From positions 809 to 64,808 of IMG/VR virus record IMGVR_UViG_3300033066_001910: a stretch of DNA of 64,000 bases. The stretch is one strand, 5' to 3'. The DNA comes from a virus (taxonomy: Duplodnaviria > Caudoviricetes). Shown piece by piece: positions 30,223 through 48,073 of this stretch. The notes beneath the pieces are model-generated. The model did no database searches and was not told the origin of the DNA. It saw only the letters and a list, made by a program, of their open reading frames with translations. The position numbers and the translations under genes were made by a program. Position 1 is the stretch's first letter. Each line of letters starts with the position of its first letter.

Positions 30223-30231
30223 CGGCCGTCC

Positions 30232-30975
30232 TTACGTCAGGTCGTAGGTGATGGCGCTGCGATTGCCGTCGGCATCGACCGTCGCCGTGATGCGGTCCTT
30301 GCTATCGGCAACGGCGTTGCGGATGACCACCGTGGCGGTGGCTGCGCCAGACAGCTTAGCTGCGTCGGCGGCGGCAATCAGGCGCAGGGCTTGGCGCAAC
30401 GTCAGACCCGTTTCGATGGCGTTCGCGCGATCCAGCAGGGCGTCGGCAATTTCGTTGGCCGCATCGGTCGCCAGTTCGCTAGCTCCGATGGCGTCGGCAG
30501 CAATGGCCGCGGCATCGATGGCGCCGGCCGCGTGCGCCGCGGCGGTGATCACACCGGCGGCCATGGCGCCCACGCTGGCATCGAACCGTCCGCCGACCAG
30601 GTTGGGTGCCGTAGTGCCGTTGACCTGGGTGACACTGACGTCCAGGACATCGGTGCTGAAGAGGCTGTCGTAGACGTTCGCCGTGACGACCATGAAGTCT
30701 TCCCAGATGGGCAGAGCGCCGGATTCGAACACGGCCAGCCGGAGCAGCCCGAGGGTGCCGGTGTCGGTGGCGTCCAGCGTGACCTCATAAAAGCCGTTCT
30801 CCTCGTGGGACAACGTCTGTGCAGCGTTCTTCTGCGCCCAGTTGGCGCCGTTTTTCTTCAGGCGGATGTCCGGCTGGGTAATGGTCAGGGCCGTCTCGGC
30901 GGTGCGACCGTCCGTCTCATCGAGGAATGGGCCTATCGGAACATCAACCGACGTACTCTGCTTCAAATACCTCAT
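30232..30975 (-). CDS. virion structural protein (247 aa)
   Basis: MRYLKQST..IGPFLD..G.Y...L..TDT.TLG..; C-terminal RITATVDADGNR. Confidence 0.7.
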   Translation of the reverse strand: MRYLKQSTSVDVPIGPFLDETDGRTAETALTITQPDIRLKKNGANWAQKNAAQTLSHEENGFYEVTLDATDTGTLGLLRLAVFESGALPIWEDFMVVTANVYDSLFSTDVLDVSVTQVNGTTAPNLVGGRFDASVGAMAAGVITAAAHAAGAIDAAAIAADAIGASELATDAANEIADALLDRANAIETGLTLRQALRLIAAADAAKLSGAATATVVIRNAVADSKDRITATVDADGNRSAITYDLT

Positions 30976-31643
30976 GCGGCTCTCCTTCGGCGATAGTAGG
31001 CTTGATGGGGCACGATGCTGGTCGCGGGTGCGCCGACCGTCGGCTTGATCGGCACGGCGACGATGGCCCACGTCTGGCTGCTGCTGTTGGACCACGACAT
31101 GGTCGTACTGGCGGCGCCGACCTCCGTACTGCCGGCATACTTGATAAAGCCGGAGGAGGCGATGGCGTTCCAGCGCTGTGTTTGGCCGGCGCCAACCGAC
31201 AACGTCCCACCGTGGACGATAACGAGGCCGTCGTCGACGAGTTCGTCGGTGGCGCTGCTGACGTCGACTGTTGGTGTCGTGCCGGTGCCTGTGGCGGTCA
31301 CGGCGGTGCCCAACGGCACGGTTTGGTGGACATCGTTGTACGAGATGGCACCGGCACCGAGATCGAAGACGTTACCCGACACCGTGACGACAATGTTGTA
31401 GGTACCGACGTCGGGCGCGATCAGATAGTACGCAGTGATCCAGTATTGACCATTCGTGGTCGCGCCGCCGGGCACGGCCGTCAGGGCCACGCCATTGTAG
31501 GTAATGTCGGTCACCGGATCGCTGCTGTCGTAGTGCGAAACGGTGACGCGAAGGAGGCGGTCGGCACCGCTGCAGGTGTGCGCCCAGGTGAACGGGCCGA
31601 CGCCGTTGCCGGCGAAACTGCTGACGCTAGCGACGGTGGGCAT
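30972..31643 (-). CDS. beta-rich virion/tail protein (223 aa)
   Basis: T/S/G-rich beta pattern; AGGAG SD. Confidence 0.65.
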   Translation of the reverse strand: MPTVASVSSFAGNGVGPFTWAHTCSGADRLLRVTVSHYDSSDPVTDITYNGVALTAVPGGATTNGQYWITAYYLIAPDVGTYNIVVTVSGNVFDLGAGAISYNDVHQTVPLGTAVTATGTGTTPTVDVSSATDELVDDGLVIVHGGTLSVGAGQTQRWNAIASSGFIKYAGSTEVGAASTTMSWSNSSSQTWAIVAVPIKPTVGAPATSIVPHQAYYRRRRAA

Positions 31644-31659
31644 CGTTGCTCCTACGTAC

Positions 31660-33210
31660 TTATACCATGCCGATGGGCCAGCCCATCAAAGCGGCGCCAC
31701 GGTGGCGCATCGTGCTCCGAGCGGCCTGCCCGCTGTGCTTAACTTTCCAGAACTGCCCGCGGGTGTTCGGGAACGTCAGCAGGTGTTCGCTGTCCTCGTT
31801 CAGGTAGAACGTCTTGCTCTGCGGCGTTTCAACGTCGCCGAGGCTGTCGCTGACTGACAGGTCGACGGTGACTTGCAGGGCCTCGGTCATCTTGCGCCAG
31901 TAGCTGACGAGGCCGTCGCAGTACATGCGGGTGCCGATCTGCGCAGGCGCCTGCCAGCCGTGTTCGAAGTGCCAGGTGATGTCGGTGCCGTCGTCGTTCT
32001 GGGCCTGGCCGAAGGCGTAGACGTTGCCACTGCTGTCGCCGAATAGCACACTGCGGACACCAATGCCTTCGCCGGACATCGCATCGATACTAGCGTAGAC
32101 GCTGGACAGACCGTCGATCGTCGCGCTGTAGTTCGTCAGGGAGTCGATGGTGCTGGTCGACTGGGTGAGCCATTCGGCTGCCGCGGTGATTTCGTCGCTG
32201 AAGGTATGCGGAAACAAGGCACCGGTCTTGAGGTTCTGGTTGATGGCTCGGACGGTGTCGCTGGTGCCGGCCTTCAGGTAGCCAAACCAGATCTCGGGCT
32301 CTTGTGTGCTGACGCTGAAGGCGAAGGACCGGCGACGTTCACTGATCGAGAACTGCTGCTTGAGAGTGTCGGCCAGCGGCTCGCCATAGGGCTGGATCCG
32401 ATTGCCGTCAAACTGGTACAGGTTGCCGTCCTCGCCCAGCCAGTAATGGATGCCGTTTTGCTCGATGAGGGCGCTGGCGCTGGCGGGTCCGCTGGTACGG
32501 CCCACGAACTGGAATTGGAAGGGCTGCAGGGCGGCCTGCAGTGACGCCACGTAGACGCAGTCCTCCTTGTACACGGCGAAGCTGTTCGGGCCGAGCGGGC
32601 GGCCTGCTGTGACCACGCCGGGCGTGTCGCGCAATTCTGCAAAGTCGTTCACGCCCCAGCTGGCGCGATTGTTGAAGCCGGACCATTGGACGCGATAGTC
32701 GTTGCCGCCGGGGCGGAACAGGATGACACGGCCGCCGGCGACGCAGATGTCGCGGGCGCTGGCCGGTGGCGTGCCGCCCGTCTGGACAAAGTCGGTGCCG
32801 ACGCCGTCCCATTCGTGCAGGCTGTTGGCGTCGTTCACCCGCAGAATGTACGTCGTGCCGGATTGCACATAGCTGGCAAAGCGAACCGGCTGGGTCGCGC
32901 TGCTGACCGCCCAGGTGCCGGTGATGGCCGTGAGCGACGTCCCGTTGTACGAGTACGCATTGTCTGTCGTATGGACGACGACGTTGGTGCCGTCCAGCGG
33001 GCTGCCGCGATAGCCGATGCCGATGATGCGGCTTTCGTCCGCCGTGGTGGCCAGCAGCGTGTAGCCCGGCCGTGGTCGGCCTTCGCCGTCCCGGATCAGC
33101 CAGTTGTTGCTGGACAGCCACCGGTCGGCCGGAATAGCGGCGAAGTTCAAGTCTTCGCGGACACCGCCGGGGTACTGCAGCAGTTGGTGTTTGATCTTGC
33201 CACGAGGCAC
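31660..33210 (-). CDS. tail tubular/nozzle (P22 gp10 / T7 gp12-like) protein (516 aa)
   Basis: Beta-propeller-like repeats (VQWSG.N....W, YWLG.DG); position. Confidence 0.7.
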   Translation of the reverse strand: MPRGKIKHQLLQYPGGVREDLNFAAIPADRWLSSNNWLIRDGEGRPRPGYTLLATTADESRIIGIGYRGSPLDGTNVVVHTTDNAYSYNGTSLTAITGTWAVSSATQPVRFASYVQSGTTYILRVNDANSLHEWDGVGTDFVQTGGTPPASARDICVAGGRVILFRPGGNDYRVQWSGFNNRASWGVNDFAELRDTPGVVTAGRPLGPNSFAVYKEDCVYVASLQAALQPFQFQFVGRTSGPASASALIEQNGIHYWLGEDGNLYQFDGNRIQPYGEPLADTLKQQFSISERRRSFAFSVSTQEPEIWFGYLKAGTSDTVRAINQNLKTGALFPHTFSDEITAAAEWLTQSTSTIDSLTNYSATIDGLSSVYASIDAMSGEGIGVRSVLFGDSSGNVYAFGQAQNDDGTDITWHFEHGWQAPAQIGTRMYCDGLVSYWRKMTEALQVTVDLSVSDSLGDVETPQSKTFYLNEDSEHLLTFPNTRGQFWKVKHSGQAARSTMRHRGAALMGWPIGMV

Positions 33211-33211
33211 G

Positions 33212-35659
33212 TTACAACACCTCCACCACCATACCGCGGCAGCTGATGTCGCCAGCGTTGGCTGTGCCGTTCTGCCCGGTGACCTTGATGATGATGTTCG
33301 CTGTATCGGTGATCGAGATGGCCGTGCTAATCGTGTCCTGCGGCGTCGTACTCATCAGCATGAAGGAGCTGTAGGTCTGCTGGCCGCTGCTGATGCGGAC
33401 GACGTAGGCCTCAGTCACCCAGTCGAGGCCGTTTGGCGCCGCCGTGGTGTTGTTTACCTGCAGGGTGGTGCCGCCGAACTTCAGGCGGATCGTCTTGGTG
33501 TTACCGTTGGCGGCGGTATCACCCCAGGCGCGAATGCGAAGCGCGCGGCCATTGGTGCCGAGGACGTTCGCTGGTAGGGTGTAGGACTGCAGGTCCGTCT
33601 CGGTGGTGTTGGCACCGGTCGACGTGCTGGTATACAGCGTGGTGGCGACGGCCGGCATGCGAGCGGTCGACACCGAACTGCCCATGATCGTCCGCTTGTC
33701 GTTCGCTTCAACGACGGTCGTACCGGTGATATACAGCGGGCCGACGTCCACATCGGAGAAGGTGCTGATCAGGCCGGATTCGCCGCTGGCCGACCGGCCA
33801 TTGCTATTGCCGTCGAAATAGCCGCTAAAGAAGGCTTTGCGCTTGGTCCCGCCGCTGTCGGCGTCGATCGCCCGATAGGTGCCGGCCGACTCGATGCTCC
33901 AGTTGACGACGTGCAGGTCCGGGCCGCTGACATAGTCGATGGAGGAGGAGGCCCCGGCGCTGAACAAGAACGCCCGGGCTTGCAGGTCTTTCATGACGTT
34001 GTGACCGAAGGCGATTTTCTTGATCTTGCTGGCGCCGGTCGTCTCGACGGCGACAAATGTGACGGCGCTGTTGCTGCTGCCTCCGTCGCCGATCGTATCG
34101 CAGTAGTTATACTCAAATTGCATCAGGGCATGGTCGAAGCTGTCGGACTGCATGGTGCAGGCGGCATTACTGTTGCGAATGTCGTTGTGGACGGCCGACC
34201 ACAGCTGCGTGGCATCGTTGCCGGCACCGCCGGTAAAGTGCGTCAGCTTGATGGCCTCGCTAATCGAATTGGCGATGCGATTCGACCGGATGAACAAGCC
34301 GCTCGTCTGCAGGCAATAGATACAATGGTCGCCTTGTGTATTGCTGTCCAGGATATTGCCTTCAACGATGGCGAGCAGACAATTGCTGGTCGTGATGCAA
34401 TTGCTGACGGGTCCGCCGGAACCAATCGTCGTGCAGCGGATGTTGCACTGTTTGATGGTGGCCAGGTAGACAGCTTGATCGACGCCACCGTCGACATAAA
34501 TCCCGAAGTTGAAACCGTCGGAGTTGACGTTGTGGACGTCGAGAACGAAGCCGGCCGTGCTGGTCCAGTGGCTGGCGTTGTTGGCGTCGACGGTGATGGC
34601 CTTTTGTCCGTTGTCGGCAGTCAACGCGACCGCCATGTTGATCGACAGATCGGTGACGCGGAGGAACTTGCTGGTGCCGGTGACGCGAATGCCGTGGATC
34701 AAGCTGGAGGACGTCGCCTGTTTGATGATCGTGGCGTACGTACCGGCGCCCTTGAACCACAGATGGCGGCCAGCCGTCAGGATCTGATCGTCGATGTCGT
34801 AGATGCCGCCGGCGAAATCGACGGTGCCGGAGCCGCCGGCCGGAAACAGCGCAATGGCATTGTTGATGTTATCGAGGTTGGTGGCAGCGGCGACGCCCAC
34901 ACCAGCACCCGTCCACTCCGGGTAGACCCAGGTCTGGCTGGCAGTGTTGCCGAGGATGGCGACACCCGTGCCGGTATAGGTGAAGATCTGCCGGCGCGGC
35001 GCCTTGATGGGCCCGCTGATCGTCAAAGTCACGCCATTGGCAATCGCCAAGCTGCCCTGGCCTTGGAAGTCGAGGGTGACGTTGGCCGGCACGGTGACGT
35101 TTGTAGTCACTGCGCAGGACTTGCCGATCACCAGGGTCGCCTGTGTGCTGCTGATGGCCGACAGGGCGGCGTTCAGCGTCGAGTAGGCCCCGGCGATCCA
35201 GTTGTACCCAAAGAGGTGCGCGACGGCGCTGCCGAAGTCGCCCACGAGGCCTTGTGGGCCGTCGTCCAGCCAGACTACTTTGCCTTCGCTACCGGCGGCG
35301 GGCAGACTGGCCTCGAGCGTCGGGGTGATGATCGGAGCGGTGAGCGTCTTGTTGGTCAGCGTCTGCGCCTGATCGCTCGTCGTCAGCGTCTGCACCGCCG
35401 AGCCATCGTAGTACTTCAACGCCGTGCTGTTGCGCTGGACTTCGCCGGCGGCCGACGGGTTGGTTCCGCTGTTCTGGAAGATGACTTTTTGCAGACCGGC
35501 GGCGGTCACCGACAGGGCGGCGGCGCTGACGTTCGTGTTGTTGGCAATACCGAGGATGTCCAGGACGGCCGTCTTGAAGTCCTGGATGATGGTGTCGAGG
35601 GTGCCGGGGTCGGCGCTGCCAGCCGGGTCGGCGCTATTAATCTTATTGGGAAGCGACAT
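33212..35659 (-). CDS. tailspike/tail fibre with a parallel beta-helix (815 aa)
   Basis: N-terminal head-binding region; LDFQGQGSLAI module; FPAGG..G.Y; N/D/I-rich pectate-lyase-like repeats. Confidence 0.8.
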   Translation of the reverse strand: MSLPNKINSADPAGSADPGTLDTIIQDFKTAVLDILGIANNTNVSAAALSVTAAGLQKVIFQNSGTNPSAAGEVQRNSTALKYYDGSAVQTLTTSDQAQTLTNKTLTAPIITPTLEASLPAAGSEGKVVWLDDGPQGLVGDFGSAVAHLFGYNWIAGAYSTLNAALSAISSTQATLVIGKSCAVTTNVTVPANVTLDFQGQGSLAIANGVTLTISGPIKAPRRQIFTYTGTGVAILGNTASQTWVYPEWTGAGVGVAAATNLDNINNAIALFPAGGSGTVDFAGGIYDIDDQILTAGRHLWFKGAGTYATIIKQATSSSLIHGIRVTGTSKFLRVTDLSINMAVALTADNGQKAITVDANNASHWTSTAGFVLDVHNVNSDGFNFGIYVDGGVDQAVYLATIKQCNIRCTTIGSGGPVSNCITTSNCLLAIVEGNILDSNTQGDHCIYCLQTSGLFIRSNRIANSISEAIKLTHFTGGAGNDATQLWSAVHNDIRNSNAACTMQSDSFDHALMQFEYNYCDTIGDGGSSNSAVTFVAVETTGASKIKKIAFGHNVMKDLQARAFLFSAGASSSIDYVSGPDLHVVNWSIESAGTYRAIDADSGGTKRKAFFSGYFDGNSNGRSASGESGLISTFSDVDVGPLYITGTTVVEANDKRTIMGSSVSTARMPAVATTLYTSTSTGANTTETDLQSYTLPANVLGTNGRALRIRAWGDTAANGNTKTIRLKFGGTTLQVNNTTAAPNGLDWVTEAYVVRISSGQQTYSSFMLMSTTPQDTISTAISITDTANIIIKVTGQNGTANAGDISCRGMVVEVL

Positions 35660-35664
35660 ACGTA

Positions 35665-35862
35665 CTACTCCTTACGGTCGGCTGCGGTGGCGTCGAGGGC
35701 GCCCCAGCCGTACGCATGGGCCAAAGCCACTTGACGACATGCGCGCTGGAGGCGATCCAGATATTCAGGCGTATAGACGGCATCGATTTCGGCCCGGGTC
35801 CAGCGTTTGACACCGGTGTAGTCCTCTGGGTGGTAGTCTTCGACTCGGTGCTTATTCGCCAT
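35665..35862 (-). CDS. hypothetical protein (65 aa)
   Basis: GGAG SD; between adaptor and tailspike. Confidence 0.55.
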   Translation of the reverse strand: MANKHRVEDYHPEDYTGVKRWTRAEIDAVYTPEYLDRLQRACRQVALAHAYGWGALDATAADRKE

Positions 35863-36784
35863 CGAGTTGGTGGCTGACACCGTAGTCGGTTGTGCCCAAG
35901 CCGGAGGTGCGTGGCGCTCGGGCGATGGTCCGCGGCAGCGACAGCCGCGTCAGCTCGGTCGGCATCACGTCGGCACCGACCTCGGCCGACTTGCGTTCAT
36001 AGAACAGCTGCAAGGTAGCCCAGGACTGGTCGCCGGTCTTGGCATGTAGCATGCCGCAGCAGTCGGCGGTGACGGCGAACGCCAGATACGGCACGCTGAT
36101 GTCAATGGTGGACAAACTGGCGAGCGTGGGTGCCTTGCGGATGTATTGGCCGCGCAGGAGGCGGGCTGCTGTCGGCACCGGCCACAGTTCGATTTCCTTG
36201 ACGCTCAGGCTGGATTCGCCGGCGTACATCCAGTAGCGCGGGTCGGCGTTCGTCTCATGACGATAGGGATCGCTGTGGTCGAGCGTGTCGCGGCCGCCAT
36301 CCAGCTCGTCAATCTGGAAGCGTCCAGCGAGGCTATAGATGGCGTCGGCGCCGTCGGGTAGCAGGTAGATGGTCTGGAAGATCCGCCAGCTGACGTCGTT
36401 GGCCGTGGCGCCCGTCCAGGTGACGGTATTGCCTTCGCCGTCGCCGAGCGTCAGCTGGCCTGACAGCGGGACGTCGTTGACGAAGTAGTACTGCAGTTCA
36501 CTGCCGAGCTGGATCTGACGGCCGACCATGGCCGCGCTGAAGGGCGTGCCGGACGAGGTGACGGTCGAACTGCCGTTGGTGACGGTGACGGTGTCGGTTG
36601 TGCCGGAGGACACCTGAGCGACCGTCTGGATGACGAAGTCCCGCAGCTTGCGGCTCCACAGAAACGTCTCGTAGATATGCTCGTAGCGCGTCTGGGCCAT
36701 TGATTCGACTTCGGTGCTGGATAGCGATGGATCGCTGCCGAGCAGGCTCTGCACGCGGATGACAACGTCATTCAGGGTGGCCAT
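35852..36784 (-). CDS. head-tail adaptor / tail tubular protein A-like (310 aa)
   Basis: MATLNDVVIRV N-terminus; P..W..ELWPVP..Y pattern. Confidence 0.7.
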   Translation of the reverse strand: MATLNDVVIRVQSLLGSDPSLSSTEVESMAQTRYEHIYETFLWSRKLRDFVIQTVAQVSSGTTDTVTVTNGSSTVTSSGTPFSAAMVGRQIQLGSELQYYFVNDVPLSGQLTLGDGEGNTVTWTGATANDVSWRIFQTIYLLPDGADAIYSLAGRFQIDELDGGRDTLDHSDPYRHETNADPRYWMYAGESSLSVKEIELWPVPTAARLLRGQYIRKAPTLASLSTIDISVPYLAFAVTADCCGMLHAKTGDQSWATLQLFYERKSAEVGADVMPTELTRLSLPRTIARAPRTSGLGTTDYGVSHQLDGE

Positions 36785-37029
36785 TACGGTGTCCTTGCGC
36801 TGCGCAGGTGGACGATTTCGATCGTGTCATCGATGCGGCGAAGATAGCACTCACCGGAGATCAGGATGTCGGCGATGTCGGCACCAGGGGCCCAGGCGCG
36901 GACAAATTCGAGATCCGACGGCCGGACGATCGCCTTTTCGCACTCAGGATCCACGGCGACGTACGTCGTCGAGCAGGCTGTCAAGCTCAGTACGCAACTC
37001 GCGAAGACGAACCACATCGTGCGTGTCAT
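36784..37029 (-). CDS. lipoprotein, o-spanin candidate (81 aa)
   Basis: LSLTA|C lipobox; lies in the lysis gene group. Confidence 0.55.
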   Translation of the reverse strand: MTRTMWFVFASCVLSLTACSTTYVAVDPECEKAIVRPSDLEFVRAWAPGADIADILISGECYLRRIDDTIEIVHLRSARTP

Positions 37030-37156
37030 AGAGGCATGTCCTGATGGCGGCGCGCAAGTCGGCAATGCGGCGATCACGACGCGCGTCGCGGTTAAAGGTG
37101 GCGGTGAGCCAGTCGTACAGGCGATTGAAGGTGCCGAAACCGTCCGTCCAGGGCAT
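36944..37156 (-). CDS. hypothetical protein (70 aa), overlaps the lipoprotein gene
   Basis: AGGT SD; helical; 86-nt overlap in another frame. Confidence 0.5.
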   Translation of the reverse strand: MPWTDGFGTFNRLYDWLTATFNRDARRDRRIADLRAAIRTCLYDTHDVVRLRELRTELDSLLDDVRRRGS

Positions 37157-37162
37157 ATATAC

Positions 37163-37402
37163 CTACGGTTTGATCACTTTCGGTTCAGTGGCGGCCAACG
37201 CTGGCGTGTGGGTGACGTTCGCGTCCTTCGCCGACAGGAGGCCGAAGGCCGTCGCGAGCAGGCACAGGCCATGCAGGGCATAGCGGATACGTTCTGGCAA
37301 AAACGGACTGATTTCGTCCGTCAGGCCTGTCGACCCACAGACAACGAGCACATAGCCAGACAACGTGGTTTTCCATGATGGCCCAAGCAAGCGTTCGATC
37401 AT
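37163..37402 (-). CDS. holin-like protein (79 aa)
   Basis: SWKTT..G and GLL.AKDANVT pattern; two hydrophobic segments. Confidence 0.6.
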   Translation of the reverse strand: MIERLLGPSWKTTLSGYVLVVCGSTGLTDEISPFLPERIRYALHGLCLLATAFGLLSAKDANVTHTPALAATEPKVIKP

Positions 37403-37743
37403 GGGGTGCCTTTCGGGGTGCTGTTGGTAATGGAGGCGGCGCGACTTTCGACGATTTCACGAACGCGGTCTTGGATGTACGGGGGTAGGTCTTTTTTGCG
37501 GTTGTCGGGCAGCATCGTACTCAGGAAGACGTTTTCGTTGGCTCTGGTAAGCTGCCCAAGGTTAAGCATGATCGCATAGTGCTCTTGATGGATCATGAGG
37601 GTCTGCTGGTTGATGGTCCAGACGCCATAGAAAGACGTGCCGACGATCGCGATGGCGAGCAGGACGTTGACGACGGTATGACCGGCGGCGCGAAAGGCAG
37701 CAGATCCAGCGGAGGCTTCAAAACTGTCTGTCGGCTCTGGCAT
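37399..37743 (-). CDS. single-TM protein (holin/i-spanin candidate, 114 aa)
   Basis: GGAG SD; TM segment VVNVLLAIAIVGTSFYGVW followed by a helical region. Confidence 0.55.
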   Translation of the reverse strand: MPEPTDSFEASAGSAAFRAAGHTVVNVLLAIAIVGTSFYGVWTINQQTLMIHQEHYAIMLNLGQLTRANENVFLSTMLPDNRKKDLPPYIQDRVREIVESRAASITNSTPKGTP

Positions 37744-37808
37744 ACGTACGACTCCCTGGGTAGAAATACGACCCTCAGTGTGACAGAAAATGCCTGCGCT
37801 GCCAAGCC

Positions 37809-39071
37809 CTAGCGGGTGACCCAAACCCCCTTGGTCGCCTCCACTTCGGTCCCGTTCAGGAGGACGATGTTAACGCGGATCATGTAGGTGCCGGCGGTCG
37901 GGATGGCCACGGTGGTGCTGGTGGCTGATGTCGTGGCGATGAAGGTCCAGGTCGAGGTACCTTCGATGCGCCGGTAGACTTTGTAGTTCGCGGTGCCGGC
38001 GACGGCGTCCCATTCGATGGAGGCCGTGCTGGAGTCGGCGGCCGTGGCGATGAGGCGAACGGAGGGCGGCGCTGGAGCCCCGCTGCCGCTGTTGACGCTG
38101 AATGTCCGGCTGGAAGCTTCGCTGACCGTGCCGGCGCTATCGACCCAATGGACCCACCAGCTGTAGTTGTGGCCGGCAGTGACGGCGTGCGGACCGCTGG
38201 TCGTACCGGTCAGGTCGTTGAGACAGATCTTTACCCCGGGGCAGAGGACGCTGGTGTTGGCGGTGCCCTCGGTTTCGTCGAGCAGCCGGAAGCGGTAGCT
38301 TGCGGCACCGGCCATGGCTTGCCAGGTGAAGGTAACAGTTGTCGTGGTGCTGTCGAAGACGGCGCTGGCTGACGGTGACAGCAGGACAGGTGGTGACAAT
38401 GGCTGGGTGCCTCCGCCGGGGTTCGACGTGGTGACGGTGACCACGCTGGCGGTGCCGACGCCATTGACCGTGCCGGTCACTGTGCTGACACCGGCAGCCA
38501 AACCTGTGACGGTGACGGTGCAACTACGCGAGCCGGTCAGGACGACGCAATTGCTAGCGCCGATCGTCAGGGCGGCTGGATTGCCGTTCGAGATGGGAAT
38601 GGCGAAGTTCGACGTGGCGGCCGTGTTCAAGGTAAAGACGATGTTGGCCGAGTTGTTGACCAGAATGGTGGTCGCCGAGGGGCTGACCGAGGCGATGCTG
38701 TAGCCGTCCGACGGTGGAGGGGGCGGCGGCGGAGGCGCAGGTGGTGGCGGTGGCGGCGTTGGAGGTGGCGGCGTCGAAATGGTCACCTGGGCACAAGCGC
38801 TCGGCGCGCTGATGTTGTTCGTCGTGTCGAAGGCTCGGAGGCGGTAGGCCGACGTAGGCGACAGCGGGCTGGCGTCGGTCATCGTCGTCGCGGTGACGGT
38901 GCCGATCGTCGACCAACTGGTGCTGTTGCACGAGGCGGCACGTTCGACGCGATAGCCAGCGAGGTCGGCCTCCGTGTTGGCAGTCCACGTCAGGACGACG
39001 GTGTCGGCCGCCCAGGCCGACAGGGCGGTCCAGCACCAAAACACCAGAACGCAGAGTAGGCGCATGCGCAT
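37809..39071 (-). CDS. exported FN3/Ig-repeat protein with signal peptide (420 aa)
   Basis: MRMRLLCVLVFWCWTALSAWA|; LTWTANTEADLAGY; poly-Pro linker; further FN3-like WQAMAGAASY and WDAVAGTANY. Confidence 0.85.
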   Translation of the reverse strand: MRMRLLCVLVFWCWTALSAWAADTVVLTWTANTEADLAGYRVERAASCNSTSWSTIGTVTATTMTDASPLSPTSAYRLRAFDTTNNISAPSACAQVTISTPPPPTPPPPPPAPPPPPPPPSDGYSIASVSPSATTILVNNSANIVFTLNTAATSNFAIPISNGNPAALTIGASNCVVLTGSRSCTVTVTGLAAGVSTVTGTVNGVGTASVVTVTTSNPGGGTQPLSPPVLLSPSASAVFDSTTTTVTFTWQAMAGAASYRFRLLDETEGTANTSVLCPGVKICLNDLTGTTSGPHAVTAGHNYSWWVHWVDSAGTVSEASSRTFSVNSGSGAPAPPSVRLIATAADSSTASIEWDAVAGTANYKVYRRIEGTSTWTFIATTSATSTTVAIPTAGTYMIRVNIVLLNGTEVEATKGVWVTR

Positions 39072-40003
39072 TACTGTGTGACCTTTTGGGCATTCAGACC
39101 GGTCGGTACGGCCGGAGGCCCGGCAGGGCTGTCAGGGTTTGGCGTCGTTCCGCCGGCACCTGCGCTGACATACCAGTCGTCGGTGTCGTAATAGTCGTCG
39201 TATGGACGGCAGTCGTTTGGAGCGGTCGTGGGCCCGACGCTCGGGTTGCGCGTCGCGCACTGCCCGTCCCAGGTGTGATTGGTCTGCACACTGATGAAAT
39301 TGTACGCCGGGAAGTTGACGTTGGTGTAGTTCGTGCGGACGATGCCGTCGACGACGACCCGGATGGTGCCATCGCGTGACGTCTCGGTCGAACTCCGCTT
39401 CATCGTGATCTGAACTTTGTGAATGTCACCTTCGGTGATGCCGGAGCTGTTGACGTTCGGCAGAAAGACGACGCTGCTGCCGCCACAGTCGCCGACGTAG
39501 TTCGACAGATGGCAGTTGTTGACGGCGGTCGCCTGCAAAAAGATGCCTATCTGACGACCGCCGGCGCTCGCCCCGTAGTAGTGGACGCCCCAAAGGGCCC
39601 CACCACCGACTTGGCGATCCGTCATCATAAAGCCGTACTTGTTTGCGCCGTTGTTGTACCCGCCGAAAGGATTGCTCGTCCGAAAGGTAAAGCCCCAAAA
39701 GATATTGCGCTGGGCCGAAAAAAAGCATTCCAGCTGCGTGCCGCCGACGGACGAACCGGCTGGCTTTTGCTCCCGCAGATGCGAAGGCGAGCTGTTCCAG
39801 CTGCCGTTCGCCTCTGAGCGAATGAAGGCGTACAGGCCGGAACTGTCTGGGTAGTAGTCGAAGCAGGCCCCGCCGTTGGTCTTGTCGTTGAAGCGGTGGC
39901 GGAGCAATTGGTTGTAGCCGGTCGGTTCGTCGGCATAATCAGTACTGGCAAGTACGTAGTCAGCAGACAGCAGGCTGGCAAGCAGGAGAGCGATGTACAG
40001 CAT
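39071..40003 (-). CDS. exported ConA-like / polysaccharide-lyase-like beta-sandwich protein (310 aa)
   Basis: Signal peptide MLYIALLLASLLSADYVLA|; GANK, HKVQI.MK, DGTIRVVVDG, TWDG, YYDTDD pattern. Confidence 0.65.
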   Translation of the reverse strand: MLYIALLLASLLSADYVLASTDYADEPTGYNQLLRHRFNDKTNGGACFDYYPDSSGLYAFIRSEANGSWNSSPSHLREQKPAGSSVGGTQLECFFSAQRNIFWGFTFRTSNPFGGYNNGANKYGFMMTDRQVGGGALWGVHYYGASAGGRQIGIFLQATAVNNCHLSNYVGDCGGSSVVFLPNVNSSGITEGDIHKVQITMKRSSTETSRDGTIRVVVDGIVRTNYTNVNFPAYNFISVQTNHTWDGQCATRNPSVGPTTAPNDCRPYDDYYDTDDWYVSAGAGGTTPNPDSPAGPPAVPTGLNAQKVTQ

Positions 40004-40011
40004 GGGACTCC

Positions 40012-40746
40012 TTACTTCAGGCACGTCATGGTGAGCGTGCGGACTTTATTGCCGGTGGTCGACCGGCTGATGCCGCGCGGACAATCGATGGCGTTATAGA
40101 TCATCGTTACGACGTTACCTTGCTCGGTCACGGCAAAGACATCCGGTGTGGGCACAGGCGGGGACGGGAGCAGCTCAGGCTCGACTGGATCGGTCGGACT
40201 GGGCTCCCAGACGACGCTGCTGAAGTTGTTACAGCCTTGTTCAGTCCAAGTGCCGGTGGCCGCGTCTTCAACCTGGTAGCACACCCATGTTTGCGTGCGG
40301 TTCCACGGGCGGAGGTGTACGTACAAGCCCTGGACGGGCAGGATGCCGGTGACTTCGGTGTAGCCACGGGTGTCGTCGCTGGCGTAGCGCAAGCGGGTGG
40401 CCGTGCCGGTCCAACGCACGGTGGCCCCAGCGGCTGATGGCGTGACGGTGGTCACGACGGCCTGCGGAAAGCTGACCTGCTGACACGACGTGAAGGCGCT
40501 TTTGTGGCCGGTTGTGTCGAAGGCAGCAACTCGGTAGGCTCCATCGTTGTGCTCTAGGTCGGTGAACGTCGACTGCAGGCCGGTTGTGGCTAACTCAGCC
40601 CAAGGGCCGGCACACGTGCTTGCATACTGCACGGCATAGCCATTCAAGTCGGCTTCGGTATTCGCCTGCCAGGTGAGGGTGACGGCTGCCTGGGCGCCCG
40701 CGGCGTACAACAGGCCGGCGAGCGCCCAGATCGGTGGTCGCATCAT
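40012..40746 (-). CDS. exported FN3-like protein (244 aa)
   Basis: Signal peptide ending AGAQA|; VTLTWQANTEADLNGY..YRVAAFD. Confidence 0.8.
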   Translation of the reverse strand: MMRPPIWALAGLLYAAGAQAAVTLTWQANTEADLNGYAVQYASTCAGPWAELATTGLQSTFTDLEHNDGAYRVAAFDTTGHKSAFTSCQQVSFPQAVVTTVTPSAAGATVRWTGTATRLRYASDDTRGYTEVTGILPVQGLYVHLRPWNRTQTWVCYQVEDAATGTWTEQGCNNFSSVVWEPSPTDPVEPELLPSPPVPTPDVFAVTEQGNVVTMIYNAIDCPRGISRSTTGNKVRTLTMTCLK

Positions 40747-40756
40747 GCTCCTTTGC

Positions 40757-41149
40757 TTACTTCCCGATGTATTTCGTGGAGAAGGTTTCGTTGATCGTCA
40801 GGCCGCCGACCGATTGCGTCATGCGTGAACCGGAGTGCGCCAAGCCAAGCCCGAGGCCCAACGCCATCGGCATGCTGCCGACTGCCGACTTCGCCGCCGC
40901 CTGCCCAGAGGCCTCCTGCGCGGTCACGGTAATGGTCTCCACGCGGGTGTCCTCTTTGGGACAAAACCCATTCGCATCCAACTTCCAACAGAATACCGCC
41001 CGGTCATAATTCGGCCACCAGAAATTGCGTGAGTAGCTGTGCTGGGCGTACTCGTTCCCGATCTTATTCACATCGGTCATCGGAGCGCAGCCCGTCATCA
41101 CCACCAGCAGGCACAGACTCAGAAGAGAAATCAGTTGGTTGCCTCGCAT
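40757..41149 (-). CDS. lipoprotein (130 aa)
   Basis: AGGAGG SD; MRGNQLISLLSLCLLVVMTG|C. Confidence 0.7.
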   Translation of the reverse strand: MRGNQLISLLSLCLLVVMTGCAPMTDVNKIGNEYAQHSYSRNFWWPNYDRAVFCWKLDANGFCPKEDTRVETITVTAQEASGQAAAKSAVGSMPMALGLGLGLAHSGSRMTQSVGGLTINETFSTKYIGK

Positions 41150-41234
41150 AGATCCTCCTATTGCGTTCGTCGTTTGTCCGTCAGTCTCGCTTTGATCGTC
41201 ACCCACCAGGGCGCAGCGCTCGCGTCCGCCCATG

Positions 41235-42887
41235 TCATCGTGGTGTCCTTTCGACCGCCGCCCCCGACGAAAACTCATAGAGGCCGCGTGAAGGATGTGA
41301 GGGAGAAAACCGACGCCCGATAAAATCCCGCGCAAACATCACATGCTGGCCTGACCATTTACCGACCGACGACGGCTGCAAACGGAAATTCTGGGTAGCC
41401 GGATCGACAAACAACGGATCAAATCCACCCGCCGCTGCGTTCGCGCTCTGCGTGCTGATCGTCGTGGCGGCAGACGGGGGGTAGTCGCTCGCCGCTGTCG
41501 TGGTCCAGTTCGCGGTCTGCGTGTAGCCCAACGCAGCCCCAGCCGCCCCAAAACGCGGCCACCAAATGTTATGGTCCTCGGTCAGCACCGCCGTAGCCGA
41601 GCCCTTAGAAATGGCCCCGGCTTCGTTGTAGGCAGCAATGCTGTTGCGAATCGTAAGGCTTCCCGCCCCCGTGACTCCGCTTGTAATGAGCGCGAACAGA
41701 TGCGATCCGTAATCCACGGAGTTGTAGATCCGCAACGCCCCGTCTGCATTGAGCGCGGCGTGCCTGTGGCCTGAAAAATAACTCAGGTTTGAGACCGCCT
41801 CGGTCGTCCCCGTATTACTGTGGTCAATGGCGTGCAGTGACTGATAGCGGAAGATGCAGCGCTTGATGTACCAAGTGCTGGCAGAGCGATTAGAGATCCC
41901 GACTCCGTAGCTAGTCGAGGACCCGCTATTCCGGTTTCCTAGTTCGAAAATACCGTCCTCAAACGAGTGCCATGCCCATGTGGTCGAGACACCAGCGGGT
42001 ACTTGCCCCACCCGCACCGTATGCACTTCAGGGTTGACAGCGGAGCGCACATACACAGTGGAGTACCCCAGCGAATCGTTGTCTCCCCACCCCATCGGCG
42101 ACACAGCACCAGAAGGCGCCGCGCTCCCCGTCAGTGCCCCAACCGTGCCCATGTCTGGGTCGAGATCCGCAGAATCATTAATAAAGATCCCTGCGATCAC
42201 CCCACAAAACGGCTGTACCAAAGATGGGTTGCTGCCATCACTGCGCCGTACGTACCACTCGGCAGGGTTGGCCGCAGATTGCGTCCAGGTGTACCCGTTG
42301 GCTGCCGTCAAGGTGAGTCCGCTATCAATCGTCGAGCCATTGAGTTGCCAGCGCCGATAGCGCGTGGCACCCGCACTCCCGCCAGGATCAAGGGCCGCTA
42401 GGTTTGCGCCACGGTTGACCGCCGTGATATTGATACTCTCCCCTGCACTCTCGTCAGCCATGGTGTTGGTTGAGGCCACGGTCATAGTCGTCGTTCCAAC
42501 CGTGCCCACGGTGAATTGTCGATCATTGCTGGCCGACCCCAAGACGCGGATGATGTCGCCGGTCTGGAACCCAAGTGAGGTAAAGTTGGACGAGGCGGAC
42601 GTGATCGTCCGTGTTGAGGCCGTGAATGAGATGTCGGTCTTAATGCGAGTCGTCACGGTCGAGAACATCTCTCGATAGGTGCCGGCGCCCTCGAAAATCA
42701 CGCGATCAATCGTGCTCCCTCCTGAGCCAGCTCTGAACCGCTCCAGCGCGTTGACGCCACGATAGGCGTTCGCAGAACTGGTGCCGTCATTGCTGCCGGT
42801 GGTTAAGTCCTTGTTGATGTAGCGGACCGCTTCAGCCTGCGCCGAGACTGGAGCGACCAGGAGACATGCGAGTAGCAACCATCTCAT
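41235..42887 (-). CDS. exported parallel beta-helix protein (550 aa)
   Basis: Signal peptide MRWLLLACLLVAPVSAQA|; SNDGTS..NAY; C-terminal DPLFVDP..FRLQPSS..GLYEF (choice-of-anchor-Q-like). Confidence 0.8.
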   Translation of the reverse strand: MRWLLLACLLVAPVSAQAEAVRYINKDLTTGSNDGTSSANAYRGVNALERFRAGSGGSTIDRVIFEGAGTYREMFSTVTTRIKTDISFTASTRTITSASSNFTSLGFQTGDIIRVLGSASNDRQFTVGTVGTTTMTVASTNTMADESAGESINITAVNRGANLAALDPGGSAGATRYRRWQLNGSTIDSGLTLTAANGYTWTQSAANPAEWYVRRSDGSNPSLVQPFCGVIAGIFINDSADLDPDMGTVGALTGSAAPSGAVSPMGWGDNDSLGYSTVYVRSAVNPEVHTVRVGQVPAGVSTTWAWHSFEDGIFELGNRNSGSSTSYGVGISNRSASTWYIKRCIFRYQSLHAIDHSNTGTTEAVSNLSYFSGHRHAALNADGALRIYNSVDYGSHLFALITSGVTGAGSLTIRNSIAAYNEAGAISKGSATAVLTEDHNIWWPRFGAAGAALGYTQTANWTTTAASDYPPSAATTISTQSANAAAGGFDPLFVDPATQNFRLQPSSVGKWSGQHVMFARDFIGRRFSPSHPSRGLYEFSSGAAVERTPR

Positions 42888-44548
42888 TGCGCGCTCCCTT
42901 CCTCGATATTCCCGCCGCACCGGTCCCCGCTGCAGGCCGCATCGAACGCGGCAACGGGTAATTTCCCCGCAGCGCGATACTGCACCCAGGAGGGGCGGGC
43001 GTGGTGGTAGATCACGTTATTCACAATCGTCTGCGTGCCGACCCCGGCAGGGATGACCAGCGCCACATCTTCACTGCCCGCGATATACGGCCCGCCGCAA
43101 TCAAGCAAACGGTTGCCGATCAAGGCGTGCCCCGCAAGCGTGGGTTGTTCCCCGCGTATCGAGAGGCATGGCGCATGGGCGTTGCTGAGGGTGTTGTAGG
43201 CCAGCAGGTTCCCGTAGGAGGTGCCGGTATAGGCCTGCATTTCGACCGACTCAGTGCGGTTGCCGTACACAATATCAGGACGCTGATTGCGGAACACGTT
43301 GCTGATGAGCGTGTTGCCGTTGCCGTTCAATTGCGAGCGTATCCGGAACCCGTCGAAGATGTTCCCGCTGAGCACAATCCCTGTCGCACGGTCAGGCCCG
43401 TTTCCGTCGATCGTAAAACCACGGCAATAGGACACATGCGCAGCGCACGTCAGCACATTGTTGTGCACGGCCACATCACGCACCGCGCCGGTCCCCGACG
43501 TTGCGCGGATGGACAGATTCGCGTGTGGCCAGTCTCGAATAACGTTCGAGAGCAACCGGACCCGTTGCGCGCCGAACGCCACATCAATCCCGTCACCCTG
43601 CCCAGAGTTCCATTCCCAGGCGTAGCCCGCATAGGAGAGAGGCGCATCAGGGGCAATGGTGCAGCGCGTCACCGTCACATCGTCAGACGGCTCGCCGGTC
43701 CCGTTCCCGTTCGTATCCGCGATAAACAGCCCGCGCACGCCATGCCGCCCAATCCGGCATGTCTCAACACTGCTGCCCTCAATCGTGATGTGATCGGCTC
43801 CAAGCGAATACAGTGCGGCGTAGTGCCCGCCCTCTAGGCGTGGGTTCACCACCCGCACCCAATCGGTTTCGTTCGTCGGAATGCGAATCGGCGCGTAATG
43901 GCCCACTTCTCGCGCTGCCAAGGATTCCACGCTGACCGCCCCCACCGCAGGGTTTGAGGCGGACTGCACCGTGAGGCGGTTCGCAGCCTGGTCAAACCAC
44001 CAGGTCGCAACCGGAGCCGTCGGGCTATTGATCCGTGTTCCAACATTCGCGAGGGAGTTGGACATGATCTGTTCAATGCCATTGATCCAGAGCCGACGCG
44101 GAAGCGGGTAGGCATACCCTGAGAGCACGAGACTCCACCGATCCCCGCCGTCGTGCGTCCATGCTTCAGGGGCTAGGGCTTCCGGGTGCGCGGTCACATG
44201 CCGGATCAGCCCACTATCGCCAGGGCAATCAAAATTGAGCGTAATCGGTGAACCGTCACTGCCGGTCGCCCCCGCCACGATGAGACTCTTTCCTGTCGTA
44301 TGCGTCCCGCACACGTACAGCGTATCGCCGTCGTCAATACCCGTGGTCGGTGCCCAACCGATCGACGGGAAATCCACGAACGCCCCAGGCTGCCCGGGGG
44401 AACTGGCGCAGTCATACGCGAGGCCATCACCGCTATGCGGGCATGCGCCAGACGGACGGACGTACCAGGATTCAGGGCCAGACGTGCCAACAGCCGCGTA
44501 GGCCTGCGGCAGATCCAGCCCCAACAAGAGCAACAGTACCAGCCACAT
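42884..44548 (-). CDS. exported parallel beta-helix protein (554 aa)
   Basis: Signal-like MWLVLLLLLGLDLPQAYA|; WYVRPSG..GDG..GDTLYVCG; N-rich beta-helix repeats. Confidence 0.8.
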   Translation of the reverse strand: MWLVLLLLLGLDLPQAYAAVGTSGPESWYVRPSGACPHSGDGLAYDCASSPGQPGAFVDFPSIGWAPTTGIDDGDTLYVCGTHTTGKSLIVAGATGSDGSPITLNFDCPGDSGLIRHVTAHPEALAPEAWTHDGGDRWSLVLSGYAYPLPRRLWINGIEQIMSNSLANVGTRINSPTAPVATWWFDQAANRLTVQSASNPAVGAVSVESLAAREVGHYAPIRIPTNETDWVRVVNPRLEGGHYAALYSLGADHITIEGSSVETCRIGRHGVRGLFIADTNGNGTGEPSDDVTVTRCTIAPDAPLSYAGYAWEWNSGQGDGIDVAFGAQRVRLLSNVIRDWPHANLSIRATSGTGAVRDVAVHNNVLTCAAHVSYCRGFTIDGNGPDRATGIVLSGNIFDGFRIRSQLNGNGNTLISNVFRNQRPDIVYGNRTESVEMQAYTGTSYGNLLAYNTLSNAHAPCLSIRGEQPTLAGHALIGNRLLDCGGPYIAGSEDVALVIPAGVGTQTIVNNVIYHHARPSWVQYRAAGKLPVAAFDAACSGDRCGGNIEEGSAQ

Positions 44549-45018
44549 CAGCTAAACCTCCCGATCCCAATACAGGTCATATTGGTGGATGTGGTTATCT
44601 TCCAGCCTCCGTCTGCGCTCACGAGATCAAGAATTACAGTTTGACTTCCGGCCCCGCCCTTAATTTCGAAAATGTTCATGGCGGACCCGGCGCCATCCTT
44701 AATGGAGGTCGCCGCTGCCGGTGCCGCCGTCCAGACGCAATGCACGGCATGCAATAAATCCCCAGCCGCCCCCGTGGTCCCCATCACCTGATCGGTCTGC
44801 GAGGCTGCGACGGTTTCGTAGTCGAATGTAGACTCCACCCTCAAGACATCGTTGGTGACATCCTCCCCCGCCAAGGTCGTGGCGAGGGTCATGCCAACAT
44901 TACTATTTGCGTCTAGGACGCCGGTCGTCGGGCCGCCGCCAGGTGCCAGCGTGCCGGCGAACGCGAATGGAGCACTGAGTAGGACTGCGAAAGTAAACGC
45001 TAATATACGGAGTTGCAT
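44548..45018 (-). CDS. virion-type beta protein with an N-terminal signal peptide (156 aa)
   Basis: MQLRILAFTFAVLLSAPFAFA|; YETVAASQTDQV.G.TGA.GD..SIKDG..GGWKITT pattern recalled from phage structural proteins. Confidence 0.7.
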   Translation of the reverse strand: MQLRILAFTFAVLLSAPFAFAGTLAPGGGPTTGVLDANSNVGMTLATTLAGEDVTNDVLRVESTFDYETVAASQTDQVMGTTGAAGDLLHAVHCVWTAAPAAATSIKDGAGSAMNIFEIKGGAGSQTVILDLVSADGGWKITTSTNMTCIGIGRFS

Positions 45019-45350
45019 TAGTAGAAGACCTCCACGCGCACGGTCGCGCCGGTGCCGGTGACGTTGGCTGTCGTAACGTAGTAATACGGATAGACGGCCG
45101 TACTGGTGGTAGCCACGTCTTGGTCACGCGTTGTGTCAGACAGCGTAATAGTCGCCACGAGGACACCATTGGCGTTTTCGATCGTGCGACAGCCGTAGAT
45201 GGTAACGGTTGCTGTGACGGCGCCAGTGCCAACGACCTCGGCCCAAAAGGTTTTGTACCCGGCGCGACCGCGAACCGTCTGGGTGGTTGTATTTGTCGTA
45301 ATACCGGCCGCCAGTGTGACGATATCGGTTGGGCGAGAGATCTCAAGCAT
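45018..45350 (-). CDS. small beta-sandwich virion protein (110 aa)
   Basis: AGGAGG SD; Thr/Val-rich; follows the capsid genes. Confidence 0.65.
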   Translation of the reverse strand: MLEISRPTDIVTLAAGITTNTTTQTVRGRAGYKTFWAEVVGTGAVTATVTIYGCRTIENANGVLVATITLSDTTRDQDVATTSTAVYPYYYVTTANVTGTGATVRVEVFY

Positions 45351-47110: not shown

Positions 47111-48073
47111 TTACCCCGTGATGCCGGTCATGACGAACTGGAAGCGCGGCGCGCGGCACACCAGGTTACACCAGGTGATGAGCTGGCCGATCTGCTTCTG
47201 TTGGTTCGTCGGTTCCATGAAACCCCGGAAGCGGAAGTCCCACTTCGGGTGGACATAGAACTCGAAGTAGTCCGTGTTCAGGCCGTAGATGTAGCCCGTC
47301 GGGACGTGGCTGTCGACGGTGACGATCGCGCTGTTGAAGCGGACCGTCTCGTAGCCGATCTCGCGCAGGTCACCGGAGGTGTTGCGCTCGGACGGCTGCG
47401 ACCGTTCCCAGATGGTGTTCCAGATCGCCTGCGTGGTGACGAGCAGGTCGGGCTTGATCCGGCCCTGGACGGCTGCACCGAAGTTGGTGTTCAGCTGGGC
47501 GAAGGAGAGCACACCGCCCGTGGTGTCCTCGGCGGCAGCGAGGATGCTGTAGCCGGGGTCGGTCTGCGTGGTTGAGCGGGTGAGCCCGCCGTAGGACACG
47601 CTGGTGGATCGGCTGATGGCATTGGCCAGACCGTCGAGGTCACGGCCGCTGTTGCCGGAGCCGTCGCCGAAGATCTGAGTGCCCATTTCGTCCACGAGGG
47701 ACAACTCACCATTTTCCATCGCGCTGTCGACCAGGTCGAAGACGGCCTCTGGGCTGTCGTTCAAGTCGATGTCGATGACGTCCAGATTGACCGGCGCATA
47801 CAAGTACTTCCAGTCGAACGTCAACGTGGTGGCGAATTCGCGGCTGGTCGTGTCGAATTCGGTCCCACGGCCGTAGGACTGGGCCGGGAAGCCGGCATAG
47901 ATGTGGCTGACGCGGATCTCCGTTCCGCCTTTGACCTTAACGGAGTTCTTCTTGTACAGCCGCGCGATCAGCGGAGCCGACTTGAAAAACCCGTCGATCA
48001 GATCTTTGCGGCGAGATTCCGCCGTCGCCGAATAGAAGGTGTTTTGCACTTGCGTCCGTGTGGGCAATGCCAT
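47111..48073 (-). CDS. major capsid protein (HK97-fold, 320 aa)
   Basis: AAGGAG SD; downstream of scaffold; GDGSGNSGRDLDGL, KPDLLVTT, Y.LNTDY..NLVC..PR pattern. Confidence 0.85.
   Translation of the reverse strand: MALPTRTQVQNTFYSATAESRRKDLIDGFFKSAPLIARLYKKNSVKVKGGTEIRVSHIYAGFPAQSYGRGTEFDTTSREFATTLTFDWKYLYAPVNLDVIDIDLNDSPEAVFDLVDSAMENGELSLVDEMGTQIFGDGSGNSGRDLDGLANAISRSTSVSYGGLTRSTTQTDPGYSILAAAEDTTGGVLSFAQLNTNFGAAVQGRIKPDLLVTTQAIWNTIWERSQPSERNTSGDLREIGYETVRFNSAIVTVDSHVPTGYIYGLNTDYFEFYVHPKWDFRFRGFMEPTNQQKQIGQLITWCNLVCRAPRFQFVMTGITG

Follow-up and report, generated by a model that had tools for sequence, protein, structure and literature searches.

Seven consecutive genes with export-type signals in the late operon of a tailed phage form a mosaic of at least two mobile cassettes

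The seven-gene block and its predicted export signals

IMG/VR record IMGVR_UViG_3300033066_001910 is a 64.8-kb sequence of an uncultured tailed phage from wastewater that is rated complete by CheckV, and the window analysed here (64,000 nucleotides, positions 809 to 64,808 of the record) is nearly all of it. Between the capsid and tail-type genes, positions 37809-45018 of the window are filled by seven consecutive minus-strand open reading frames (ORFs), designated g7 to g1 in the order in which they are read (Table 1). A sequence-only reading of the window had proposed that all seven begin with an export signal, six of the signal peptidase I (SPase I) type and one of the lipoprotein type, and comparison with relatives now confirms these as conserved export-type sequences, translocation and cleavage themselves being predictions. 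Close relatives of two of the proteins switch between a Sec signal, a twin-arginine translocation (Tat) signal and no signal at all, and it is on this basis that we think the seven products probably do not become part of the particle but act in the host envelope.

The minus strand carries the window's late genes, amongst them those encoding the large terminase (57202-59712), the portal (54904-56610) and a major capsid protein (47111-48073; phrog_9953, E 6e-43) that is only ~25% identical to the capsids of the Myxococcus phages Mx8 and Mx9 and the Brucella phage Tb. The major capsid gene is followed by four small unnamed genes, the seven-gene block, three membrane or lipoprotein genes and finally the tail-type genes (29584-36784). 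Searches of PHROGs and Pfam gave no name to the genes flanking the block, and the labels originally attached to them ('capsid decoration' on one side, 'lysis' on the other) are plausible. The lipoprotein and spanin-like genes suggest a Gram-negative host. No GenBank phage record in INPHARED matched the DNA of the block or the g1, g2, g5, g6 or g7 proteins; about half or more of the sampled words of the block are present in wastewater, activated-sludge and aquatic metagenomes from several studies.

The ORFs overlap by a few bases at four joints (g7/g6, g6/g5, g3/g2 and g2/g1), g4 and g3 are 10 nt apart and the sole real gap is the 85 nt between g5 and g4, so that the description of the genes as adjacent and mostly coupled holds. 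Shine-Dalgarno motifs back all seven starts (the higher coordinate of each gene in Table 1). For g5 this led to rejection of an upstream GTG at 42920; for g4, the ATG with AGGAGG 7 nt ahead of it was chosen over a TTG at 41335, and for g2, the start with AAGGAG ahead of it was chosen over a GTG at 40024.

The Sec signals of g1, g2, g3, g5, g6 and g7 were scored by inspection and with a home-made rule against the usual pattern of a short, mostly basic n-region, a hydrophobic core of ~7-15 residues and small residues at -3 and -1, and all cleavage sites given here are predictions. Each of the six consists of a hydrophobic stretch ending in a predicted A-x-A-type site (AWA↓AD, VLA↓ST, AQA↓AV, AQA↓EA, AYA↓AV and AFA↓GT), whilst g4 has the lipobox VMTG↓C, which was read against the pattern [LVI][ASTVI][GAS]C and in which the Met at -3 is unusual. 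In its strict form the rule flags six of the seven block genes, the exception being g3, which is less hydrophobic but has a conserved signal. The same rule flags 4 of the 35 other late genes, these being the neighbouring lipoprotein, a holin-like protein, another membrane protein and one probable false match. The Tat twin-arginine motif (S/T-R-R-x-F-L) is absent from all seven window proteins.

These signals are well conserved. All nine members of the g6 family have one, the hydrophobic core drifting whilst an A-x-A↓xG(T/S) site stays fixed, and the copies in two of the related loci on other viral contigs (L010 and L011) agree with this. Signals are likewise present in 20 of 20 aligned relatives of g2, two of them lipoprotein-like. 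Those of g1, g3 and g4 are kept in the sister phages L020 and L021, where the core diverges and the cleavage site and mature N-terminus are retained, as is the lipobox Cys of g4 (LAAC in L020, MTGC in L021). In addition, 12 Cys residues are invariant in the nine g6 family members, as expected for disulfide-bonded extracytoplasmic proteins. We regard export of the seven-protein set as likely.

Table 1 Features of the block and its surroundings (coordinates are those of the window)
Feature	Position	Strand	Description
g7	44548..45018	-	156 aa; Sec-type signal (predicted cleavage after AFA), variable linker, ~95-aa C-terminal domain of a large virus-only family
g6	42884..44548	-	554 aa; Sec-type signal, right-handed beta-helix, 12 family-invariant Cys
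g5	41235..42887	-	550 aa; Sec-type signal, right-handed beta-helix with an inserted small beta domain
Spacer between the two cassettes	41150..41234		85 nt; recombination junction
g4	40757..41149	-	130 aa; predicted lipoprotein, lipobox VMTG↓C
g3	40012..40746	-	244 aa; Sec-type signal, FN3-like N-terminal domain, Cys-containing C-terminal part
g2	39071..40003	-	310 aa; Sec-type signal, probable polysaccharide-lyase-type beta-jelly-roll, conserved Pro-rich C-terminal linker
g1	37809..39071	-	420 aa; Sec-type signal, then an FN3-like domain, a poly-Pro linker, an Ig-like region and two further FN3-like domains
Adjacent membrane/lipoprotein genes	36784..37824	-	37399-37824, one N-terminal transmembrane segment; 37163-37402; lipoprotein 36784-37035 (lipobox LTAC); holin/spanin-like

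Two cassettes that move between phage backbones

Whilst the block had first been taken for a single system, its distribution in other viral contigs identifies it as a mosaic of at least two independently moving cassettes. Cassette A comprises g7-g6-g5, that is, a small beta protein and two beta-helix proteins, and recurs at 80-97% identity in unrelated phage backbones. In L011, the C-terminal domain of g7 is followed by g6 and g5, collinear with the window at 90%, and downstream lie a gene taken, by its position only, for a probable terminase and a T7-type portal. In L010, the cassette is found at 80-88% behind a P22-type portal with the order of g5 and g6 swapped, in L003 it lies at 72-82% behind unrelated genes, and in L009 g7 and g5 occur alone after a Mu-type head. 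Cassette B comprises g4-g3-g2-g1. In L020 and L021 it forms one collinear stretch together with the membrane/lipoprotein genes and the backbone gene that comes next. In these two sister phages g2 is partly or wholly replaced, and the g1 copies, with their signals, are 96% (L020) and 82% (L021) identical to that of the window. As all parts of the block recur in other viral contigs, it is not a decayed fragment of host DNA.

The junction between the cassettes falls in the spacer at 41150-41234: similarity to L011 stops at 41275 and similarity to L020 begins at 41090. Contigs from three wastewater runs have loose ends at 41144-41214, and the L021 contig ends immediately upstream of its g4. The wastewater-run contigs break also at 44858-44896, and in runs X2 and X3 the relative depths of cassette and backbone differ in opposite directions; depth was not used for ranking, with the loose ends alone being taken as hints of a junction. 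The breaks and the opposite depths fit the presence of g7-g6-g5 in several backbones within one community.

At the joint between g2 (end, 39071-39140) and g1 (start, 39009-39071), the C-terminal ~22 residues of g2 (Pro-rich, ending PTGLNAQKVTQ) recur near letter-for-letter in the relatives P0229-P0233, which elsewhere are just 33-38% identical, and have the look of a recombination linker. The same tail also reads like a first FN3 strand that continues into mature g1.

That the cassettes move between backbones is one of several observations that might point to exclusion or conversion genes (morons), whose exported products would alter or mask the cell surface and so block superinfection. Signal-bearing phage lipoproteins and outer-membrane proteins encoded amongst virion genes, such as T5 Llp, T1/phi80 Cor and lambda Lom, are the classic form of such functions. 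The G+C content at third codon positions (GC3) of g5, g6, g7 and the next upstream gene (45018-45350), i.e. across 41235-45350, is 0.65-0.72, below the 0.78-0.87 of the capsid, portal and tail genes, and this too could be expected of morons. However, morons have their own promoter and terminator, and scans of the block found one promoter-like site where 3.3 are expected by chance (sigma-70 patterns only) and seven terminator-like sites where 8.2 are expected (intrinsic-terminator patterns only), with no site of either kind bracketing the block. The original description of a late, operon-embedded exported module is supported. The genes are translationally coupled to late genes, no match to the tyrosine integrase family PF00589 was found in the record, and known exclusion genes make do with far less than 7.2 kb of large enzyme-like proteins. 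Were the proteins to destroy a receptor, the distinction would in practice merge with the glycan-targeting role that we favour below. We consider an exclusion function distinctly unlikely, and a superinfection-blocking coat, one of three roles initially suggested for the block, is weakened by the lack of both a PF00589 match and a promoter of its own.

Interchangeable N-termini and protein folds

The g5 family has 47 members, and the N-termini attached to the same mature end fall into three classes: 10 are Sec signals, 11 are canonical Tat signals (with the motifs RRDFL, RRQFL, RREFF and RRELF) and 22 forms have no signal, starting directly at the conserved mature N-terminus. Two of the signal-less copies were checked on the DNA. 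The g5 of L010 (85% identical) starts at a TAATG overlap with no hydrophobic extension upstream, and that of L026 (95% identical) has the same arrangement. Nucleotide similarity between the window and L026 begins at 42837, which is the predicted signal/mature junction of g5.

The switching is shared with g7. Both g7 and g5 are of the exported type in the window, L003, L009 and L012 and both are signal-less in L010, L026 and L027, with no discordant locus amongst those that could be read; in L010, g6 keeps its signal whilst g7 and g5 are without one. The C-terminal ~95 residues of g7 define a family that is seen in viruses only and numbers 911 representative clusters at E <= 0.001; a signal is missing from most of the 150 best relatives. 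A Cys pair is present in 15 of the 24 signal-bearing relatives and 4 of the 126 signal-less ones (Fisher 2e-11, a value uncorrected for kinship and not from independent counts). Neither g7 nor ten members of its family matched Pfam or PHROGs, and the nearest Atlas clusters are hypothetical proteins of Uroviricota. A g7-type gene precedes a beta-helix gene in four of the five contexts examined, including the signal-less L022 and L023, the exception being L024. A complex prediction for mature g5 with mature g7 scored 0.00, which gives no verdict and counts neither way.

It had been noted at the outset that the case for export would suffer if homologues started downstream of the hydrophobic segments. 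This is not so for g6, g2, g1, g3 and g4, but it is half true for g5 and g7, where 22 of 44 g5 relatives and most of the g7 family are signal-less. These relatives are nonetheless informative because others carry a Tat signal instead, and replacement of Sec by Tat on the same mature g5 end is hard to explain unless export is a selected property. Free switching of this kind resembles that of soluble envelope enzymes such as endolysins (PMC6116005) and is hard to reconcile with a part that docks in the cytoplasm.

The same observations bear on the possibility that there is no real export, the start codons having been wrongly chosen or the N-termini being membrane anchors or assembly pro-peptides. 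Half of the g5 family does without a signal, and g2 and g6 have no basic residue ahead of the hydrophobic core at the chosen starts and hence no charged n-region, although seven of eight g6 homologues have such a residue. Against this, Shine-Dalgarno motifs precede the signal-including starts, signals are conserved across families whilst their cores diverge, canonical Tat motifs take the place of Sec on the same mature end, and Cys patterns track the signals. We regard a lack of export as highly improbable.

Searches of Pfam, PHROGs and NCBIfam with the seven proteins gave weak or sub-threshold matches only, and it is structure prediction that places two of them, bearing out the earlier description of g5 and g6 as ~550-aa beta-helix proteins. 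The AlphaFold2 (AF2) model of g6, with a predicted local distance difference test (pLDDT) score of 81.5, is a right-handed beta-helix (VIA-align Z 29.5, root-mean-square deviation (rmsd) 2.8, 296 aligned) that matches periplasmic NosD (Z 29.5), the AlgE4 epimerase (29.4), the Det7 tailspike (28.6) and K5A lyase (27.7). The g5 model (pLDDT 84.9) is also a right-handed beta-helix (Z 22.2, rmsd 3.1, 267 aligned), with matches to a PL6 alginate lyase (22.2), the periplasmic capsule depolymerase VexL (18.0) and the Vibrio matrix lyase RbmB (17.2). Such structural matches define a fold class and not an activity. In both models stacked coils of three strands make up most of the chain, and the mature protein starts at the helix cap with no separate N-terminal docking domain. 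No similarity between g5 and g6 was detectable by BLASTP, Foldseek returned just generic beta-helix matches with low TM-scores, and the Pfam family PF13229 matched g6 at 18.9 bits against a cut-off of 25.9. Profile searches of the Protein Data Bank (PDB) with the g6 and g2 families gave nothing useful.

The FN3 and lyase-like folds also proposed for the block fared less evenly. The g2 protein itself matches no Pfam profile or PDB entry, but 2 of its 20 relatives, at 45-53% identity, match PF14099 (Polysacc_lyase; best E 2.9e-6), precomputed hits to this family exist on P0226-P0228, and the language-model neighbours of g2 in the Atlas include PL14/Polysacc_lyase clusters (0.92-0.94). A beta-jelly-roll of polysaccharide-lyase type is probable for g2, on indirect support. 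For g1, the Pfam fn3 match (PF00041) of 24.4 bits falls below the cut-off of 25, and the last domain matches phrog_4971 (E 3.8e-8). The first domain of g1 is 44-47% identical to g3, which has weak PHROG matches of its own (E ~1e-3) to Hoc-like/FN3 parts of virion proteins. No family match was found for g4.

A probable role in the envelope, and comparison with known systems

On balance, we lean towards the view that the products of the block are exported and target glycans, acting on the envelope or matrix at a late stage of infection. Such a purpose is suggested by several features taken together: signal types switch freely, the folds are of enzyme type, no docking domain is modelled, g6 has an obligate disulfide pattern and the block is linked to lysis-type genes. 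All seven proteins would leave the cytoplasm late in infection, six via Sec and SPase I and one as a lipoprotein. We infer that they would be translated from the late transcript alongside the virion proteins and build up in the periplasm or at the cell surface, where they may bind and cut host envelope or extracellular polysaccharide, be it the capsule, exopolysaccharide (EPS) or O-antigen of a floc-dwelling Gram-negative host. Cutting might free the progeny from the matrix and prevent them from sticking to debris or to cells that are already infected. Cassette A would then pair its small beta protein with two beta-helix proteins of glycan lyase, hydrolase or tailspike fold, whilst cassette B, with its link to the holin/spanin-like genes, would bring a lyase-like jelly-roll and two FN3-type binding proteins as well as a lipoprotein. 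Enzymes that degrade capsule or EPS were amongst the three roles first suggested and fit best of these, their activity being surmised from fold and context.

The block or its relatives adjoin membrane/lipoprotein genes in the window, L020, L021 and L012. In the window there is no endolysin amongst these genes (36784-37824). No M15 homologue was found in the window by tblastn, and the record lacks three common endolysin families (PF00959, PF01510 and PF13539), the only muralytic domain found in it being the SLT domain of an 816-aa protein (22571-25021). This late minus-strand protein (PF01464 lytic transglycosylase, 102.6 bits) is probably an ejection or internal protein. A 70-aa minus-strand ORF without a transmembrane segment (36944-37156) overlaps the lipoprotein gene at 36784-37035 in another frame, a layout like that of Rz/Rz1, and the same overlapping layout is seen in L019 (18094-18300 and 18176-18484).

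Runs of signal-bearing proteins also occur elsewhere. L018 (6553-14312) and L019 (6625-16089) each have six or seven in a row, including a relative of g2. In L019, the run is followed by one signal-less gene, a gene which we take, by eye only, to encode an M15-type cell-wall peptidase, a homologue of the window's 37399-37824 gene, a holin-like gene and the overlapped Rz/Rz1-like pair. L004 has a g6 relative and a signal-bearing protein of 1454 aa, followed by another gene that resembles, again by eye only, that of an M15-type peptidase and then by small membrane proteins. In the phage-like contigs L005 and L006, a g6 relative is preceded not by a g7-type gene but by one for a ~305-aa signal-less protein with a Pfam SO2946-like_C match (L005 1834-2754, L006 4114-5025) and is flanked by more signal-bearing proteins.

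A number of observations weigh against an envelope role. The fold matches of g5 and g6 score alike for many CAZy families, are no more specific than the beta-helix class and include virion tailspikes amongst the closest, and g2 and g6 have the uncharged n-regions described above. The L018 and L019 runs include signal-bearing homologues (~40% identical) of the window's phrog_553 'minor tail protein' (30972-31643) and of residues 158-252 of its 815-aa spike. In several phage types (L008 and L029-L031), signal-less relatives of g5 are consistently positioned between the capsid genes and those of the head-tail connector, and the g7 family, being virus-only and mostly signal-less, fits a virion role. 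A g5 profile scan of prokaryote genome contigs gave just partial, distant matches in metagenome-assembled genomes of several phyla and named no host, so that no substrate can be named either. Finally, contigs from two metatranscriptome-labelled wastewater libraries cover g5-g7, which is not counted as expression since DNA carry-over is possible; bins without coverage in these runs carry no meaning.

Several of these points would be accounted for if the proteins were virion appendages that mature outside the cytoplasm, folding and forming disulfides in the periplasm and binding to finished particles when the envelope breaks down, with g7 serving as the adaptor through which the beta-helix proteins attach to the head or tail. 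It is above all the head-module position of the signal-less g5 relatives and the virus-only nature of the g7 family, whose signal-less members precede beta-helix genes in L022 and L023, that keep this explanation alive, and the tail-protein and spike homologues of L018/L019 and the 12 invariant Cys of g6 are in keeping with it. However, we know of no tailed phage shown to assemble parts from the periplasm. Docking of g5, of which near-identical (95%) copies exist with and without a signal, would need to work in the cytoplasm as well as after lysis, and signal-less tail proteins are already encoded at 29584-35659. What marks a virion tailspike is also not seen in g5 and g6, which have signals and, in the models, no separate N-terminal domain. 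We judge virion appendages unlikely, though this proposal, which dates from the sequence-only reading, is the main rival to that of glycan-degrading enzymes.

A broader and more speculative scheme would have beta-helix spikes with their small partner, and tail-fibre-type domains, repeatedly moved onto the Sec or Tat pathway by exchange of the N-terminus in a widespread set of uncultured phages. Part of the particle's glycan-binding equipment might then undergo folding and oxidation in the periplasm and be added only at lysis, which would amount to an extracytoplasmic step in the assembly of tailed phages, or the exported set might constitute a fourth, matrix-clearing stage of lysis. We hold either version to be doubtful.

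On the accepted view, tailed phages assemble their particles in the cytoplasm, and holins, endolysins and spanins are their only means of reaching the envelope. An exported, enzyme-like late block that is common to unrelated wastewater phages, with switching at up to 95% identity, thus points to an unstudied activity directed at the envelope or matrix. Should the proteins be depolymerases that work from the inside, they would be relevant to the escape of phages from flocs and biofilms and a source of secretion-competent glycan enzymes; if they are parts of the particle, the textbook account of phage assembly needs an addition. Nature provides matched pairs of the same protein in exported and non-exported form, which makes the window a good test case. 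Our literature search found no account of several genes for exported glycan enzymes grouped in the late operon of a tailed phage, nor of a family of this kind that switches between Sec, Tat and no signal.

The closest parallels come from four directions. Pantoea stewartii WceF (and Erwinia AmsF) is an EPS hydrolase of tailspike fold that has a Tat signal and is encoded in a bacterial EPS cluster (PMC7949094). In both WceF and the block, a tailspike-type right-handed beta-helix is sent (in the block, by prediction) across the inner membrane by an N-terminal signal, in WceF to act on the cell's own exopolysaccharide, and 11 relatives of g5 have Tat motifs as WceF does. Yet WceF is the product of a chromosomal EPS-synthesis gene and is a trimer of solved structure and measured activity, whereas the block belongs to a phage late operon and this copy of g5 has a Sec signal; there is no detectable sequence similarity between the two. 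Virion tailspikes and depolymerases (P22 gp9, Det7 gp208, K5A lyase and the depolymerases of Klebsiella phages) share with the block their fold class (Z 27.7-28.6 for g6), their place amongst late genes and their modular exchange. Unlike g5 and g6, which start at the helix cap behind a predicted cleavable signal, tailspikes are signal-less, have an N-terminal particle-binding domain and assemble in the cytoplasm.

Spanins and mycobacteriophage LysB act on outer layers at lysis. Exported endolysins, such as Lys44 of fOg44 with its Sec signal and the signal-anchor-release (SAR) endolysins, are likewise known, endolysin families mix signal-bearing and signal-less members, and free depolymerases released at lysis have also been described (PMC6116005). 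Like the proteins of the block, which adjoins holin/spanin-like genes, these are late phage proteins that reach the envelope before or at lysis, but their targets are peptidoglycan, the outer membrane or mycolate, and nothing in the block resembles a peptidoglycan hydrolase. Lastly, phages of Porphyromonas gingivalis encode signal-bearing surface proteins of unknown role (PMC10367356). These, together with Llp and Cor, resemble the block in being phage genes with host-adapted Sec or lipoprotein signals, some of them amongst virion genes. They are, however, single small genes of mostly temperate phages, whereas the block, in a record with no PF00589 match, consists of seven genes in a row that span 7.2 kb and encode proteins with enzyme-type folds.

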